A stretch of DNA of 64,000 bases from Octopus vulgaris. Taxonomy: Eukaryota. The translations under genes were made by a program, and so were the position numbers. Where the stretch lies: contig OX597816.1 of assembly GCA_951406725.2 (NCBI GenBank), positions 121,148,001 to 121,212,000 on the forward strand. The letters run 5' to 3'. The stretch's first letter is position 1; each line of letters starts with the position of its first letter. Below are positions 4,846 to 35,236 of the stretch, in pieces. The notes beneath the pieces were generated by a model, which saw only the letters and a program-made list of their open reading frames with translations, was not told the origin of the DNA and did not search any database.

Positions 4846-5806
4846 CAATCAAAACCCTTGTCGTGTCCCTTACTGATGGTCACAGTTTCGCAATCCCTGT
4901 TGCAGCTCCCCATGTTTCATCTTACAGTCTTTACAGTGTTCCCAGAGCATTTATCAACTGTCAAAATATCGGCATTTTGACACACAGCACGAATCGTCAT
5001 GATAAAAGTAACTCTCCTAATAGTCAGATGGTTTCTAGTCCTCGATGTCACCAAACGTTTTCTTAACAACTTTAATCTGTACAACTTTGAATACTTAAAA
5101 AGTGAGAACAACACTGCCATTTAATACCACACAATTTCACTACAAGACGCGGTATGACAGTCAAGGCACTCCCGCCAGCAACATGTCAAGGCACAATATC
5201 TGTTTTAACAGAAATGCATAGGTGACAGGTGTAAATAACTGTGCAATACACTTTTATTTATATTTCTCACACCCAAAATAAAACCACTTTGGCATGAAAT
5301 ATTTTGCATATTTTCCCTTTATTAAAATTGCCGTTCATCTGAAGACTACAAGCAAAACATATTTCTATTTATATTCACAAATCTATACATATATGTGCAT
5401 TTATAGGTGTAACACAGGCGTCTTGGAAATTTTTAATGCGCTATTTTCTTAAAAATATATTCAATAAAAATTTTTATACTTTTTTTATGTAACAATATAT
5501 GCTCATATATAGAGCATATATTATTTGAAAGTCCAAATGGTGAGTATTAAAGCGAGCTTTAAATTCCTAAACAATACTCGCCTTGGGATCAGGAGTACAT
5601 GAATCAGTGTCTCACACAGGCTCAGCTTAAAACTAATATGATTGTACTCTACCTAACAGTATTGAGTAATTTTCTCAGCTTAATTGCAGTTCACACCAGT
5701 GTAATACAGCCATTTCTTTTACACGCACGCTCACACAACACACATTCACACATATACACACATACATATCTGCATATTCCTACTATTCCTATATACACGT
5801 ATCTAA

Positions 5807-7030: not shown

Positions 7031-8059
7031 GATAGATAGATAGACAAACAGACAGATAGATAGATGTGAGAATAGTAGGAATCTGCATATATGTATGTGT
7101 GCGTGTGTATGCATGTATGTGTGTGCGTGCACGTGTGTTTTGTGTGTGCGTGCGTGATGCGTGCGTGCGTGTAAAAAAATAGTTGTATTACACTGGTGTG
7201 AATTGCAATTAATCTGAGAATATTACTCAATACTGTTAGGTAGAGTACAATCATATTAGTTTTAAGCTGAGCCTGTGTGAGACACTGATTAATGTACTCC
7301 TGATCCTAAGACGAGTATTATTTAGGAATTTAAACTCACCTTTTGAACCGTCAAGATTTCCATTGAAAAAGAACTTAGAAAAAAATCATGTTCCATATAT
7401 GAGCATATGCTATTATATAAAAATAAAAAGTATAGAAATTTTTATTGAATATATTTTTAGGAAAATAGCACATTAAAAATGTCTAAGACGCCTATAAAGG
7501 CACATATATGTATAGATTTGTGAATATAAATAGAAATATGTTTTGCTTGTAATCTTCAGATGACGGGCAACTTTTAATAAAGGGAAAATATGCAATATAT
7601 TTCATATAAAGTGGTTTTATTTTGGGTATGGTTTATGATTAAGAAATATAAATAAAAGTCTATCGCCCATATATTTACCCCTTTCACCAATGTATTTCTT
7701 GTGAAACAGGTATTGTGCCTTGACATGTTGCTGATGGGAGTGCCTTGACTATCATATCGTATCTTGTAGTGAAATTGTGTGGTGTTAAATGGCAGTGTTG
7801 TTCTCACTTTTTAAGTATTCAAAGCTTGAGCATACAGATTAAAGTTGATGTTGAGAAAACGTTTGGTGACATTGAGGACTAGAAACCATCTGACTATTAG
7901 GAAAGTTACTTTTATCATGACGATTCGTGCTGTGTGTCAAAATGCCGACATTTTGACTGCTGATAAATGCTCTGGGAACACTGTAAAGACTGTAGGATGT
8001 AACATGGGGAGCTGCAACAGGGATTGCGAAACTGTGACCATCAGTAAGGGACACCATTA

Positions 8060-8491
8060 TTAGAGTTAATACTTTAGTGATTCAGAAAAATACATTTAAA
8101 AAAAAACAAAAAAAAAAACATTACAATACCTAGAAAGTAAAAAAATTATATAAAGTAATATATAAAAATATATCACGTGATCACGTGACCGACCAGACCA
8201 TCAGATGTTGTTACACATCGCTGGTCATAATGCGTTCGCATTGTTTTAGCCTTCGAATGATGCCACCCCGCTGGCTAAGCGAGCAGGCCAACAGACGAAA
8301 GAGTGAGAGAAAGAGTGGTGAAAGAGTACAGCAGGGATCACCACCCTCTGCCGGAGCCTCGTGGAGCTTTTAGGTGTTTTCGCTCAATAAACACACACAA
8401 CGCCCGGTCTGGGAATCGAAACCGCGATCCTACGACCGCGAGTCCGCTGCCCTAACCACTGTAATATATAAAAATATATAGATATATAAAA

Positions 8492-8541
<50 letters not shown>

Positions 8542-8785
8542 AGCATATAAAAAATATATAATATATATCATGTAAATAAAATAAAAGTTCATCGTTTAGA
8601 GATCTTATGAAATTATTATTCAAGTAAAAGAAGCCTTATAGTTAAAAAGGAAACCATATTTTAATATGGTTCCCTTTTTAACTATAAGGCTTCTCTTACT
8701 TGAATAATAATTTCATAAGATCTCTAAACGATGAACTTTTATTTTATTTACATGATATATATTATATATTTTTTATATGCTCCTA

Positions 8786-8816
<31 letters not shown>

Positions 8817-8945
8817 TATATATTTTTATATACTTATATATTTTTATATATTACTTTATATTATATTTTTACTTTCTAGGTATTGTAATGTTTTTTGGGT
8901 TTTTTTTTAATGTATTTTTCTGAATCGCTAAAGTATTAACTCTAA
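8060..8945. repeat. Near-perfect AT-rich palindrome (arms about 285 bp, 2-nt spacer at 8661-8662)
   Basis: Centre is accatatt-tt-aatatggt and ends are ttagagttaatactttag / ctaaagtattaactctaa. The left arm is interrupted by a SINE. Confidence 0.92.
8174..8460 (-). mobile_element. tRNA-derived SINE family C
   Basis: Homologous to 10400-10682. A 19-bp TSD gtaatatataaaaatatat lies at 8155-8173 and 8461-8479. Confidence 0.9.
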
Positions 8946-9344: not shown

Positions 9345-9960
9345 TGTATATGTCGGCACAGGACGTCACGAAACACGCATACAACAGAAATACGAAGTAT
9401 GAGTACATGGAATATGAACTATTTTTTTCGAACAACGAAAGACACAAATGGAAAACAAGACAAACAACATAAAGAACGTCCCTTCATCAGTTGTTGGCTG
9501 TTTTTTCTACTCTCGTATTTCGAGCATTTAACAAAAAGCTCCCGCGAAGCAAATTAAATAAAATTTGAGATTTTGCTGAAGGTCAAAATTGGTAACACAA
9601 ACAGGACAGTGAAAACAAACAGTAAGGAATGCTAAGCCTAAAGTAGGTTGTGGTGGCGAACGCGTAAATCAAGCTTGGCAATGGACAGACAAGAACACAT
9701 TTTCCTTGTTCCAATTACAAGGTGAGAAAGAAAGAAACACAAGTTAGGAGAAGTAACAAAGATGACCGATGCCACGTGAGCAAGGAGGGAGGAATGAGGG
9801 AGAGAGTGATAGAATAATAGGATAGAATAGTGGGAGAAGAGGATGTAAAAGAATAATAGAGAGAAAGCGAGAAAAACGAAAGAGTAAAAAGATCGTATAG
9901 AGTGCTCATCAGAATTAAGATAAAACTTATTTGGAAGAGTATGCGTGGCGTTCAGTCATA
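9345..9960 (-). mobile_element. Probable PLE pLTR/3' UTR remnant with permuted HHR-like motif
   Basis: Homologous to 34540-35190. Pyrimidine-rich leader followed by a structured GAAA...CTGATGA region on the minus strand. Confidence 0.5.
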
Positions 9961-9980
9961 TAATAATATAAATAATATTT

Positions 9981-10390
9981 GGAGTGGCTGTGTGGTAAGT
10001 AGCTTGCTTACGAACCACATGGTTCCGGGTTCAGTCCCACTGCGTGGCACCTTGGGCAAGTGTCTTCTACTATAGCCTCGGGCCGACCAAAGCCTTGTGA
10101 GTGGATTTGGTAGACGGAAACTGAAAGAAGCCCGTCGTATATATGTATATATATATATATTTGTATGTGTGTGTATATGTTTGTGTGTCTGTGTTTGTCA
10201 CCCCAACATCGCTTGACAACCGATGCTGATGTGTTTACCTCACCGTAACTTAGCGGTTCGGTAAAAGGAGCCCGATAGAATAAGTACTAGGCTTACAATG
10301 AATAAGTGCTGGGGTCGATTTGCTCGACTAAAGGCGGTGCTCAAGCATGGCCGCAGTCAAATGACTGAAACAAATAAGATAGTAAAATAG
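9981..10390 (+). mobile_element. SINE family A, full length (tRNA head, CORE-like segment, internal TA/TG microsatellite, LINE-like tail)
   Basis: A box tggctgtgtggtaag, B box ggttcagtccc, CORE-like ccttgggcaagtgtctt. More than ten copies or fragments occur in the window. Confidence 0.9.
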
Positions 10391-15788: not shown

Positions 15789-16228
15789 GTAGGAGCGCAC
15801 GTACACATACCCTAGATGAAAGTAAGCTAAAACCACCAGAGTGATTTTAAAGCGGGGCGGATGTGGAAGTATAATGTGGTTTATGACTACGAATAAACAC
15901 AACACTCTGCTGACGGATAACACATGCAACCCAGCCGAGATTTGTTTTGATATGTTTGTGTACTAGGTAACTATGGCAACTAGCGAGCGGACTACAAAGC
16001 TGCTTCTTTTGACCGAAATTTCCTACAACTGCTCGGTGGTGTAACTAAAGACATTGCGTGTGGGTGTGTAAATGTGTATATGTCTCCGTATTATACTCAG
16101 CATTTATATAATGCTTGTAGACGTTCGTATGTATGCATGAGTGTGTGTGTGTGTGAGTTTGTGTGTGTGGATTTGTATGAATGTACATATTCACACTTGT
16201 ACACGCATACAAATATATATATATATAT

Positions 16229-16385
16229 AGGAGTGGCCGTGTGGTAAGTAGCTTGTTTTCCAACCACATGGTTCCGGGTTAGGTCCTACTGCGTGGCACC
16301 TTGGGCAAGTGTCTTCTACTATAGCCTCGGGCCGACCGAAGCACTGTGAGTGGATTTGGTAGACGGAAACTGAAAGAAGCCCGTC

Positions 16386-16432
<47 letters not shown>

Positions 16433-16637
16433 TGTGTGTGTTTGTCCCCCTAGCATTGCTTGACAACCGATGCTGGTGTGTTTATGTCCCCGTTACTTAG
16501 CGGTTCGGCAAAAGAGACCGATAGAATAAGTACTGGGCTTACAAAAGAATAAGTCCCGGGGTCGAGTTGCTCGATTAAAGGCGGTGCTCCAGCATGGCCG
16601 CAGTCAAATGACTGAAACAAGTAAAAGAGTAAAAGAG
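16229..16637 (+). mobile_element. SINE family A, full length
   Basis: Colinear with 9981-10390. Confidence 0.9.
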
Positions 16638-17635: not shown

Positions 17636-18067
17636 ACTCTTTTTACTCTTTACTCTTTTACTTGTTTCAGTCATTTGACTGTGGCCATGCTGGAGCATCG
17701 CCTTTAGTCGAGCAAATCGACCCCAGAACTTATTCTTTGTAAGCCTAGTACTTATTCCATCAATCTCTTTTGCCGAACCGCTGTGTTACGAGTACGTAAA
17801 CACACCAGCATCGGTTGTCAAGCGACGTTGGGGGCGGACATACATAAACACACAAACATACACACACATGCACACACACACACACACATATATATTTATA
17901 AATATATACGACGGGTTTCTTTCAGTTTTCGTCTACCAAATCCCCTTACAAGGCTTTGGTCAGCCCGAGGCTATAGTAGAATACACTTGCCCAAGGTGCC
18001 ACACAGTGGGACTGAACCCGAAACCATGTGGTTCGTAAGCAAGCTAATTACCACACAGCCACTCCTA
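17636..18067 (-). mobile_element. SINE family A, full length, antisense
   Basis: Reverse complement of 9981-10390. Confidence 0.9.
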
Positions 18068-19515: not shown

Positions 19516-19885
19516 CAGGCGTGGCTGTATGGTAAGAAGCTTGCTTCCCAAACACATGGTTCCGGGTTCAGTCCCACTGCGTGGCACCTTGCGCAAGTGT
19601 CTCCTACTATAGCCTCGGGCCAACCAAACCCTTGTGAGTGGATTTGGTAGACGGAAACTGGAAAAAGCCTGGCGTACATATGTGTGTGTGTGTATTTGTG
19701 TCTGTGTTTGTCCCCGCCACTGTCGCTTTTTGGTGTGTTTACGTCCAAGTAACTTAGCAGTTTGGCAGTAGAGACCGATAGAATAAGTACTAGGCTTACA
19801 AAGAATAAGTCTTGGGGTCGATTTGTTCGACTAAATGCGGTGCTCCAGTATGGCTGCTGTCAAATGACTGAAACAAGTAAAAGAA
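19516..19885 (+). mobile_element. SINE family A inserted in a hAT-type MITE that starts at 19365
   Basis: Colinear with family A. The upstream cagtggttcccaacc is a MITE TIR. Confidence 0.82.
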
Positions 19886-31679: not shown

Positions 31680-33255
31680 GGCGCAGGAGTGGCTGTGTGG
31701 TAAGTAGCTTGTCTACCAACCACATGGTTCCGGGTTCAATCCCACTGCGTGGCATCTTGGGCAAGTGTCTTCTGCTATAGCCCCGGGCCGACCAATGCCT
31801 TGTGAGTGGATTTGGTAGACGGAAACTGAAAGAAGCCTGTCGTATATATGTATATATATATATGTATGTGTGTGTGTGTCTGTGTTTGTCCCCCTAGCAT
31901 TGCTTGACAACCGATGCTGGTGTGTGTTTACGTCCCCGTCACTTAGCGGTTCGGGGATCTTTTCTATTCTGAAGCCAGGACCACAGATCTTTCTACTTAA
32001 CTAAATAATCTGAAACTTCGTATGCTGATAGAGTCTAGCAAAACAAGACACAGGTTGGAACTAGTTTATTTGAGAAAAATCTATTTTATGACTTTAATCG
32101 TAGATTAAAACTGCGAATTTTAACCAATCAGATTGTTTGTTTTCATGTGTAAAACTTGACTGCATTCTATTAGTGTGACGTAGAAAGCGCTTTTGTGACG
32201 TACTAACGTTCGGAAAACTGTAAACAAACACGGCAGACGAAATACGGCTACGCATTTCGCCCGGCGTGCTAACGTTTCTGCCAGCTCTTTGCTTTTTTAA
32301 TATTAAATTTCGGCGAAGTTTCGCTTGTCGTAGCACAAGTTTTCCGTCGATTTCCGTAAAAAACTTTTATTTTTTTACATAAGTAATGAGAGCGAAAGAG
32401 ACTAAGAGGAAGCGATTTTATGACGAGGGAAGTTTGTCTTTGAAGTTACCGTCTAGGGGAAGCATTGATGTACATGTGTGTGTGTGTGTGTGTTTGATGG
32501 GGTGTGGGAGACAGTATGTTGTGTAAGTGAAGTGCTTCTGTTAGTGTGTGTGAAGAGACAGAGAGAGTAATGTGTGAAAGAGAGAGATAACTGAAATTTT
32601 TTACTCGGTGTATGTGTATATGTATGTCTGCATGTATGTGTGTGTGTGTATGTATCTATGTATGTATGGCCAATTCATCGTAATTACGATTACGATGAAT
32701 CGGCTATACATACATACACACACACACATACATACACACACAAACATACTTACACATACATACACACACACATACATGCAGACATACAGAATGGAAACAT
32801 TTTCAATTTAATACATGTGGCTTATTAACTAGTTTTAAATATTGTTATTAGAAGGTGGCTGACTTGTTTACATTTAAGATGTTAAATACGTCACGAAATT
32901 GGTGGTCGAGACGGAGTAAATAAAATAAAGCCGAATGACGGAATATCATTGGTTAAAATTCTAATTATTAAACAACGTTAAACTTAGAAGTTACAATTCC
33001 GTTTTCATTCTGGTTTACAATTAAGTTTACTTTTGACACATTCTACCAGTATACGAAGTTTCAAATTGTTTGGTTCAGTAGGAAAAATTTGAAAAAACTG
33101 GCCTCAAAATAGAAAAGATCCCGGTTCGGCAAAAGAGACCGATAGAATAAGTACTGAGCTTACAAAAGAATAAGTCCCGGGGTCGAGTTGCTCGATTAAA
33201 GGCAGTGCTCCAGCATGGCCGCAGTCAAATGACTGAAACAAGTAAAAGAGAGTAA
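31680..33255 (+). mobile_element. SINE family A split by a MITE
   Basis: The 5' part 31680-31954 and the 3' part 33122-33255 rejoin at cggttcgg. Confidence 0.9.
31955..33121. mobile_element. Non-autonomous TIR transposon (Merlin-like: GG start, 8-bp TSD)
   Basis: TIR ggatcttttctatt / aatagaaaagatcc. Perfect TSD cggttcgg at 31947-31954 and 33122-33129. Confidence 0.85.
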
Positions 33256-34416: not shown

Positions 34417-34462
<46 letters not shown>

Positions 34463-34539
34463 AATAAAATAGAACATATGCATATATATAAACATATATG
34501 TACGTACCTACCTCTACATGTACATATACACGCATATAT

Positions 34540-35190
34540 GTGTACAGGACACCAAAAAGACGTCGAACACATAGAGAGACGAAAAACATAGACACAAACC
34601 AAGGGACAAGACAAGCAAAAAAAAGAGAGATACAAGACAATAAGCACAACGAAAAATCCCCTTCTTCAGTCGCTAAGGTTTCATCTACTAAACGTTTCGA
34701 AGGATAAAAGCGAGACGTATACTTCGAAGAAAACTTCCTTCCTGCGAAAAGCAAATCAATTAAAATTCTGAGATCTTTTCGCAGAGGGGTAAAAAAAGCA
34801 AGACGGTAACGACAGTACAAACATATAAACAGTAAAAAATATATATATAAACAGTGGAAAAATAAATATATAACAGTGAGAGACAGGACAAGGAGAACAA
34901 GATAAGAAGGGCTGTTAACGCCAGACGAAAAAAGTATTGCAAACGCTGGATTATAGTGGACGACGAGAGAGAAAGATGTCGACCAGTAGCCTTAGAAGGC
35001 GGGCGAGAAAAGACAGGATAGCAGTTACGACGGAAGTATCGTCGCAGATGGACGACGGGAATGGGGGAGGAGGAGCAAGAGGAAGAGAGAGAAGAAGGGG
35101 AATGGTGCGAGGAGACCATGAAGAACGGTGAGGGGGAGAGAGAGAGGAAGAGACAAGTTAAGTGAGGGAAAAAAAGACGAAAAAGGGAAT
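34540..35190 (-). mobile_element. Probable PLE pLTR/3' UTR remnant with permuted HHR-like motif
   Basis: Homologous to 9345-9960 (shared atctca.aatttta.tt.atttgct..tcgc.g and GAAA...CTGANGAaggg). Confidence 0.5.
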
Positions 35191-35192
35191 GG

Positions 35193-35236
<44 letters not shown>

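Follow-up and report, generated by a model that had tools for sequence, protein, structure and literature searches.

A putative self-cleaving hammerhead of non-circular strand order, with a divided stem II, near the 3' end of an Octopus vulgaris retroelement

Background

Non-circularly permuted hammerheads of type SGC have been reported from metatranscriptomes only, and they cleave in vitro (Eckert et al. 2023, PMC10085705). In the HRIMA-1 ribozymes of this type, the cleavage strand (block S), the GAAA block (G) and the CUGAnGA block (C) follow each other in the order S-G-C with a complete core, about 3 nt link stems I' and II', and a bridging helix, one nucleotide past the stem II strand, joins the distal ends of stems I and II; the published alignment has one extra nucleotide past CUGAUGA. 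The scheme of six permutations in the same paper assumes that the CUGAnGA block is interrupted by no more than 1-2 nt, and its type CSG was known from two sequences. For alternative permutations, the parts of a November 2026 paper drawn on here (PMC13725137) cite only Eckert and co-workers and one other source.

Hammerheads of type I, nested in the order C-G-S, are found in Penelope-like elements (PLEs) and retrozymes, one per non-coding tandem unit and near its 3' end (bioRxiv 10.64898/2026.07.22.740005). Partial tandems and 5' truncation are the anatomy of Penelope-like insertions (Craig et al. 2021, PMC8557442) and likewise of non-LTR retrozymes (bioRxiv 10.64898/2026.07.22.740005). The PLEs named Naiads target (TA)n and are described by Craig and co-workers as being without canonical hammerheads, some of them marked only 'HHR_core' or 'HHR_half_core' (PMC8557442).

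The window treated here, the whole 64,000-nt stretch of Octopus vulgaris DNA that was analysed, comes from a genome of 2.8 Gb rich in microsatellites. It holds an RNA motif that is probably a self-cleaving hammerhead of non-circular strand order, which would receive the 5' strand of its stem II through a four-way junction and travel in an element of about 840 bp, itself likely copied by a PLE. This explanation rests on sequence and covariation, namely on the order of the parts, the six helices, the constant place of an NUH triplet, the number and structure of the copies and an occurrence of the fold 3' of reverse transcriptase (RT) remnants of Naiads.

Results and Discussion

Parts and strand order

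All elements that an earlier note had listed on the minus strand are present at 34791-34656, each in its place, and a second copy lies at 9478-9584 (Table 1). The sequence bears out that GAAA precedes CUGAnGA and that CCCCU and AGGGG close the unit; the spacer between the two core motifs, given as about 22 nt, had been counted from GAAACGT and measures 25 nt when counted after GAAA. Stem I, which was said not to be evident, is there: the strand UACGU-C-UCGCU pairs with GAA-ACGU as stem III and with the AGCGA before CUGAAGA as stem I. Because this cleavage-site strand sits within the loop of the GAAGGA/UCCUUC helix, the second helix of the note, both stems and the GUC triplet had been overlooked.

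From 5' to 3' the parts are Pa, the Pb hairpin, the 5' strand of stem II, an A, P4, an internal loop, stem III', the NUH triplet, stem I', 2-4 nt, stem II', GAAA, stem III, the internal loop again, P4', stem I, CUGAnGA and Pa'. Read from the sequence, the block order cleavage strand-GAAA-CUGAnGA is S-G-C, that of a non-circularly permuted, pseudoknotted hammerhead. The strands are neither circular nor nested in order, so that the motif is rightly kept apart from types I, II and III. The suggestion that it may be an undescribed hammerhead derivative holds for the split stem II and for the host, but not for the non-circular order as such, since the related permutation SGC was reported in 2023 from metatranscriptomes.

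Table 1. Features of the motif and its carrier element in the window; percentages are paired cells in the 49-row alignment
Feature	Position	Strand	Evidence or remark
Pa 5' strand CCCCU, closes the ribozyme	34785..34789	-	helix 85.2% paired
Pb hairpin, third arm of the four-way junction	34742..34784	-	folding; 92.8% paired, 3 of 4 pairs with double-sided change
Stem II 5' strand GAAGGA, detached from CUGAnGA	34736..34741	-	95.9% paired, 3 of 5 pairs with double-sided change
Predicted G10.1	34741	-	in stem II 5' strand
P4 5' strand, equivalent of the type SGC stem I-II bridging helix	34726..34734	-	80.7% paired; in the alignment its register varies from subfamily to subfamily
Cleavage strand (block S): stem III' UACGU and stem I' UCGCU	34709..34719	-	stem III 91.8% and stem I 96.7% paired, each with 4 of 5 pairs with double-sided change
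Predicted cut site	between 34714 (C17) and 34713	-	triplet GUC
Block G: stem II 3' strand UCCUUC, GAAA, stem III strand	34691..34704	-	
UCCUUC	34704-34699	-	
GAAA	34698-34695	-	
AGUA side of purine-rich internal loop (opposite GAA) and P4 3' strand	34678..34690	-	
Block C without stem II strand: stem I strand AGCGA and CUGAAGA	34663..34674	-	
Stem I, UCGCU with AGCGA	34713-34709 with 34674-34670	-	
CUGAAGA	34669-34663	-	
Pa 3' strand AGGGG	34658..34662	-	
Older subfamily copy, broken	9478..9584	-	23 nt shorter than intact relative
Retroelement copy, non-coding tandem-repeat, 5'-truncated (746 of about 840 nt)	34451..35196	-	3' end at ...TATTAACAT

The second copy, which the earlier note had called a homologue, is indeed one; in comparison with an intact relative, it has lost the 5' strand of P4, stem III' and the cleavage triplet, and with them the cleavage strand. 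In the subfamily of the first copy, stem III has a U-U pair at the fifth position and the internal loop is altered. Nested folding gives weak z-scores for both copies (-1.65 and -0.30, respectively), as one would expect of a pseudoknot. By eye, sister subfamilies share with the window copy a pyrimidine run some 8-12 nt past AGGGG (in the region 34657-34645), and this run could compete with the fold by forming a hairpin over A9.

Pairing and covariation

The pattern TCGAAA-N18-34-CTGAWGAAGGG matches the genome 8,639 times, against 5 matches of the reversed control, and among the 100 places listed the spacer from GAAA to CUGA mostly measures 25-26 nt; the arrangement of GAAA and CUGAnGA is not due to chance. 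From 90 of these first 100 places (those skipped were mostly repeats of the window subfamily) I obtained 92 matches. After removal of a near-duplicate and of seven copies that had internal deletions or indels, the 57 full-length copies yield an alignment of 49 rows. The earlier note had proposed to look for covariation among genomic copies, and in this alignment all six helices covary across subfamilies. Stem III reads CGCA/UGCG, CACG/CGUG, UACG/CGUA or UGAG/CUCA in other subfamilies and stem I GGCGA/UCGCC, GACAG/CUGUC, GACAA/UUGUC or AACAA/UUGUU, while stem II alternates between GAAGG/CCUUC, GAGCA/UGCUC and GAACG/CGUUC.

Stems III and I together score at least 8 out of 10 in 44 of the 57 native full-length copies, compared to 91 of 1,612 swaps between subfamilies and to none of the chance pattern matches in viral loci (0/80 and 0/158). 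With a script that demanded only a U followed by A, C or U and left pairing and distance free, the triplets found are GUU (14), GUA (10), GUC (9), AUA (8), AUC (2) and UUA (1), all of them 13-17 nt 5' of GAAA. The NUH triplet is present between stems III and I, and A15.1-U16.1 is a U-A pair in 46 of 49 rows. The CUGAnGA and GAAA core is intact in 51-52 of 52 window-subfamily copies, which were anchored downstream of it.

The structure of six helices has 33 pairs, and 89.5% of its 1,587 cells are paired, compared to 40-47% in slid controls. Double-sided changes number 248 against 89 in shuffles, none of 500 shuffles being as high, although these counts overstate independence, as the 49 rows come down to some six related subfamilies and themselves served for drawing the structure, and as the pattern fixes the core letters. 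Of five measures, the two that count pairs failed to beat the shuffles (73/500 and 162/500). Core motifs, NUH triplet and stems I, II and III with covariation are thus all found, as in a hammerhead, and the sequence comparisons support the view that the motif is a hammerhead derivative near the 3' end of a retroelement.

That a chance array of short motifs was merely carried along in a passively amplified repeat seems extremely improbable. The weak z-scores of nested folding would be in line with such an array, and copies of one subfamily are not independent, but the subfamilies, a second family and Naiads of other phyla have different helix letters and one pairing map, and compensatory changes across families contradict it.

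The split stem II

The motif shares with the HRIMA-1 ribozymes the S-G-C order, the short linker of about 3 nt between stems I' and II', the complete core and a bridging helix, P4, which likewise lies one nucleotide past the stem II strand (PMC10085705). It differs in that block C is split, with the 5' strand of stem II upstream of block S and with Pa and Pb at the step A9/10.1, and in that both strands of stem III run on into the bridging helix. The uninterrupted block C of type SGC is not found, the upstream strand pairing better than the direct one. Stem II with the upstream strand is paired in 95.9% of cells and has -6.8 kcal/mol, plus -8.5 for Pa; the direct alternative reaches 75.5% and -2.6 kcal/mol, and its fifth pair is broken in 48 of 49 rows.

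In the predicted fold, Pa comes directly after A9, and the place of the single base that bulges out in the published ribozymes is taken by Pa and Pb, which would give a four-way junction, drawn without unpaired bases in the window copy. I know of no hammerhead with two helices inserted after A9 that has been tested. The split form falls outside the scheme of six permutations, as that scheme allows an interruption of only 1-2 nt in the CUGAnGA block; with two helices at the A9/10.1 step of the core, the limit of six would be broken.

Alternatively, the motif may be an ordinary type SGC ribozyme with an off-switch, in which the active stem II forms directly, GGGG after CUGAnGA-A pairing with CUUC, and Pa, Pb and the upstream GAAGGA constitute an inhibitory alternative fold. 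Published HRIMA-1 ribozymes do use the +1 register (PMC10085705), and the four direct pairs are mostly kept, the C-G pair in 49 of 49 rows, with a double-sided change at one position. Against this, there are only 4 bp, of which one or two are G-U, the energies given above favour the upstream strand, and the fifth position is unpaired in 48 of 49 rows. Moreover, P4 lies one conserved A past the upstream strand, as the bridging helix follows the stem II strand in HRIMA-1, and by eye direct pairing is impossible in published Naiads from Acropora and Clytia. I regard the off-switch as improbable; judged from the sequence, weak direct pairing in the window family is possible all the same. Two simpler readings were dropped, namely a minimal dimer with palindromic stem III (GAAACGUU) and a plain type II closure, because the palindrome is not conserved in sister subfamilies and the pairing partners for stems I and III lie upstream.

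In the preferred fold, with its divided stem II, P4 and stem III would form one long hairpin, of which the 5' flank would pair into the hairpin loop as stem II and the 3' flank as stem I, and Pa would join both flanks; A9 would then be succeeded by Pa and Pb, compared to one bulged nucleotide in published SGC ribozymes. Both ends of the RNA would leave through one helix beside the core, a geometry that is possibly useful for ribozyme engineering. Reading the internal loop between P4 and stem III as a K-turn was rejected, as it fits one subfamily only, AGUA/GAA being more general; the latter resembles a bulged-G or loop E motif.

The same pairings could also be active only between two copies, for instance with the next unit of a tandem transcript as partner, a junction module (Pa, Pb, the 5' strand of stem II, stem I and CUGAnGA) docking on a loop with the cut site, I', II' and GAAA. 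Such a head-to-tail dimer is compatible with the preferred explanation. A monomer requires the P4-III hairpin to bend back on itself, and in the Acropora Naiads a stem III of 13 bp joins P4 on one strand without a linker (by eye). Minimal PLE hammerheads reportedly work as dimers. On the other hand, links of 0 nt between stem III and bridging helix exist among published SGC ribozymes, and SGC constructs cleave during transcription (PMC10085705). In the octopus copies, an internal loop of 4-5 nt on each strand could act as a hinge. The dimer is a possibility to which I give perhaps one chance in a few.

The carrier element

The note's idea of an RNA at a retroelement end is supported, the motif being near the 3' end of a non-coding tandem retroelement. 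The window copy, read from 35196 to 34451, is bounded by (TA)n on either side. Its best 40 matches are 99-100% identical over 211 nt, which, as far as sequence identity can tell, makes the window subfamily young and recently spread. Relatives have a common 3' end, variable 5' truncation and frequent partial tandems. An anchor for the window subfamily has 736 exact matches, with a tandem spacing of 832-886 nt and arrays of up to five anchored units among the first 100 places listed; two sister-subfamily anchors match exactly 757 and 783 times.

As in the non-LTR retrozymes and non-autonomous PLEs, the units are non-coding, in tandem and each furnished with a hammerhead. Like PLE and retrozyme type I hammerheads, this one occurs once per non-coding tandem unit, near its 3' end, and like retrozymes the element is likely mobilised by a PLE in trans (bioRxiv 10.64898/2026.07.22.740005). 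In contrast to the nested C-G-S hammerheads described there, the octopus form is a pseudoknot, which neither type I descriptors nor Rfam detect. Searched against Rfam, the element gave no hammerhead up to E 10, nor was there a hammerhead among the 150 of 315 matches listed for the whole window, which are driven by microsatellites and belong nearly all to miRNA families. As Rfam models miss the form, counts of ribozymes and retrozymes in invertebrates are probably too low. The octopus unit, at about 840 nt, exceeds most retrozymes in length.

Among the long open frames listed in the unit, which are of low complexity, signs of an RT or endonuclease are absent. The element has the (TA)n insertion bias and the 5'-truncated tandem and inverted copies of Naiads, whose targeting, copy structure and 3' ribozyme architecture it shares (PMC8557442). 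In distinction from Naiads, the window element is without RT or endonuclease and has no detectable similarity to the Naiad loci fetched; a Naiad-type ORF (N-terminal GIY-YIG, CxC, RT) was not found in the unit. The (TA)n bias is not diagnostic of Naiads, because a PLE with C-terminal endonuclease in this genome shows the same. By its sequence the element would be at most a non-autonomous relative of Naiad PLEs, and its anatomy makes copying by a Penelope-like retrotransposon likely. Assembled contigs of four runs cover the element in part, and such contigs carry no information on strand, ends or circles.

Elsewhere in the window, 4863-5719 and 7173-8054 form long inverted repeats with arms 86-96% complementary, 8464-8859 is a palindrome of 400 bp, and an abundant SINE-like dispersed repeat, 78-88% identical, recurs at 9981-10300, 16212-16544, 17737-18065, 19518-19801 and 31686-31954.

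Cutting and the 5' ends of copies

Type SGC ribozymes with an equal 3-nt linker between I' and II' and a bridging helix cleave in vitro (PMC10085705). Sixty copies of two sister subfamilies were collected with anchors that lie 53 and 79 nt downstream of the predicted cut. Of these, 19 begin 0 to +22 nt past it, where 1.8 are expected from the rate on either side; this interval was picked after the data were seen, and two inverted pairs entered as two copies each. Within the GGCGA subfamily, 11 of 30 5' ends lie at +2 to +22, two further downstream and none at -1 to -77. A core-anchored sample, which overlaps the 60 copies, has 28 of 91 5' ends (the 92 matches minus one without relative) at most 19 nt upstream of GAAA. 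No pile-up is seen in the window subfamily, where 5' ends are scattered across the whole unit and 3 of 63 arrays begin at 0 to +22, with about 1.7 expected if uniform. Circular or uncut RNA as template would agree with the scatter, and so would a less active ribozyme, stem III of this subfamily having its U-U pair.

These ends bear on another alternative, a structured RNA derived from a hammerhead that does not cut and serves as a signal for RT binding or template positioning, the pile-up reflecting RT stalling in the knot. The window subfamily has spread recently without a pile-up, in agreement with such an RNA. However, every group seen has retained an NUH triplet between stems III and I, which themselves covary, and stalling across the structure would not leave the GGCGA pattern of 5' ends. 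This alternative, too, appears rather implausible.

In the proposed cycle, the T-rich strand would be transcribed, and cutting after GUC (34714) would free unit-length RNA from tandem transcripts; as with non-LTR retrozymes, ligation could then turn this RNA into circles. The RT-endonuclease of a Penelope-like element would act in trans and prime at nicked (TA)n, some 260 nt to the 3' side of the cut. Copying of cut linear RNA would end near the cut, while copying of a circle or an uncut multimer would produce tandem arrays and scattered 5' ends.

The link with Naiads

By eye, 9 of the 54 Naiad consensuses in the PMC8557442 supplement show the split SGC fold close to their 3' end: one is from the ctenophore Beroe, one stands in the Clytia section of the file, three come from the cnidarian Acropora, two are unlabelled (part 12) and two are from Octopus. 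In the Acropora Naiads, Pa has 8 bp, P4 10 bp, stem III 13 bp and stem I 6 bp, and Pb and stem II pair too. Another 8 Naiads show, again by eye, the order CSG with a bridging helix and are of nematode origin by header or file position; those in File S5 come from Pristionchus, Nippostrongylus, Haemonchus, Heligmosomoides and Ascaris, some of them placed by file position. The sum of 17 of 54 is a floor, as the keyword search skips motifs split by line ends. Among the hemichordate Naiad ends inspected there was no clear case.

A short motif taken from the published Octopus consensus has 349 exact matches in the genome, compared to none for the control, and the Naiad form occurs 0.96-1.4 kb downstream of the RT, on the same strand, in 8 of the 30 best RT loci; one locus (L341) is a decayed copy that comprises GIY-YIG, RT and ribozyme. 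The Naiads of this genome are decayed, as is also stated in PMC8557442, and five regions upstream of Naiad ribozymes hold no ORF. In the loci fetched, the element shows no similarity to coding or untranslated regions of Naiads or other PLEs beyond neighbouring independent insertions and simple repeats. A Naiad-like RT locus was rejected as parent, since the one of 50 (L376) with a window-type ribozyme downstream has it as a separate truncated insertion. A second non-coding family (L066, L067, L075, L001, L371) has the same split SGC pairing map with unrelated helix sequences, and in some of its copies Pa shows U-U mismatches where it meets the junction.

Intact PLEs of this genome have ORFs of 891-934 aa with a C-terminal GIY-YIG and (TA)n ends (L181-L185, for example G000:C1:204941000-204947500), and 16,105 first-look candidates were found for their endonuclease. 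By eye, the hammerhead in their 3' UTR is an ordinary one of type I, its stem II being long and its stem III palindromic. As parent this PLE was rejected as well, copies in SGC order being present in 2 of 30 endonuclease loci, both apparently as separate insertions; it is a candidate helper in trans.

A Naiad 3' end is the probable ancestor of the ribozyme design. It is also rather likely that Naiads and their passengers carry an active seventh permutation, from ctenophores to octopus, and that nematode Naiads carry type CSG, hitherto represented by two metagenomic sequences. In a literature search that covered few subscription papers, no description was found of the split form or of a permuted hammerhead in Naiads; new here are the split stem II and the animal retroelement host, the SGC-type order being already known. 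If this is true, non-circular RNA permutations would be abundant in animal genomes, with about 10^4 copies in that of the window, and such RNAs would have a place in animal genomes and not just on anonymous metatranscriptome contigs. It could also answer why Naiads, dominant in many invertebrate genomes, seemed to be without the ribozyme of PLEs.

Finally, CUGAnGA followed by CGAAA in type I order, with short spacers resembling stem II, occurs on the minus strand of the window at 45203-45177, 44372-44348, 44193-44168, 28689-28667 and 21098-21074; by their sequence, these five motifs are possibly decayed minimal PLE hammerheads.
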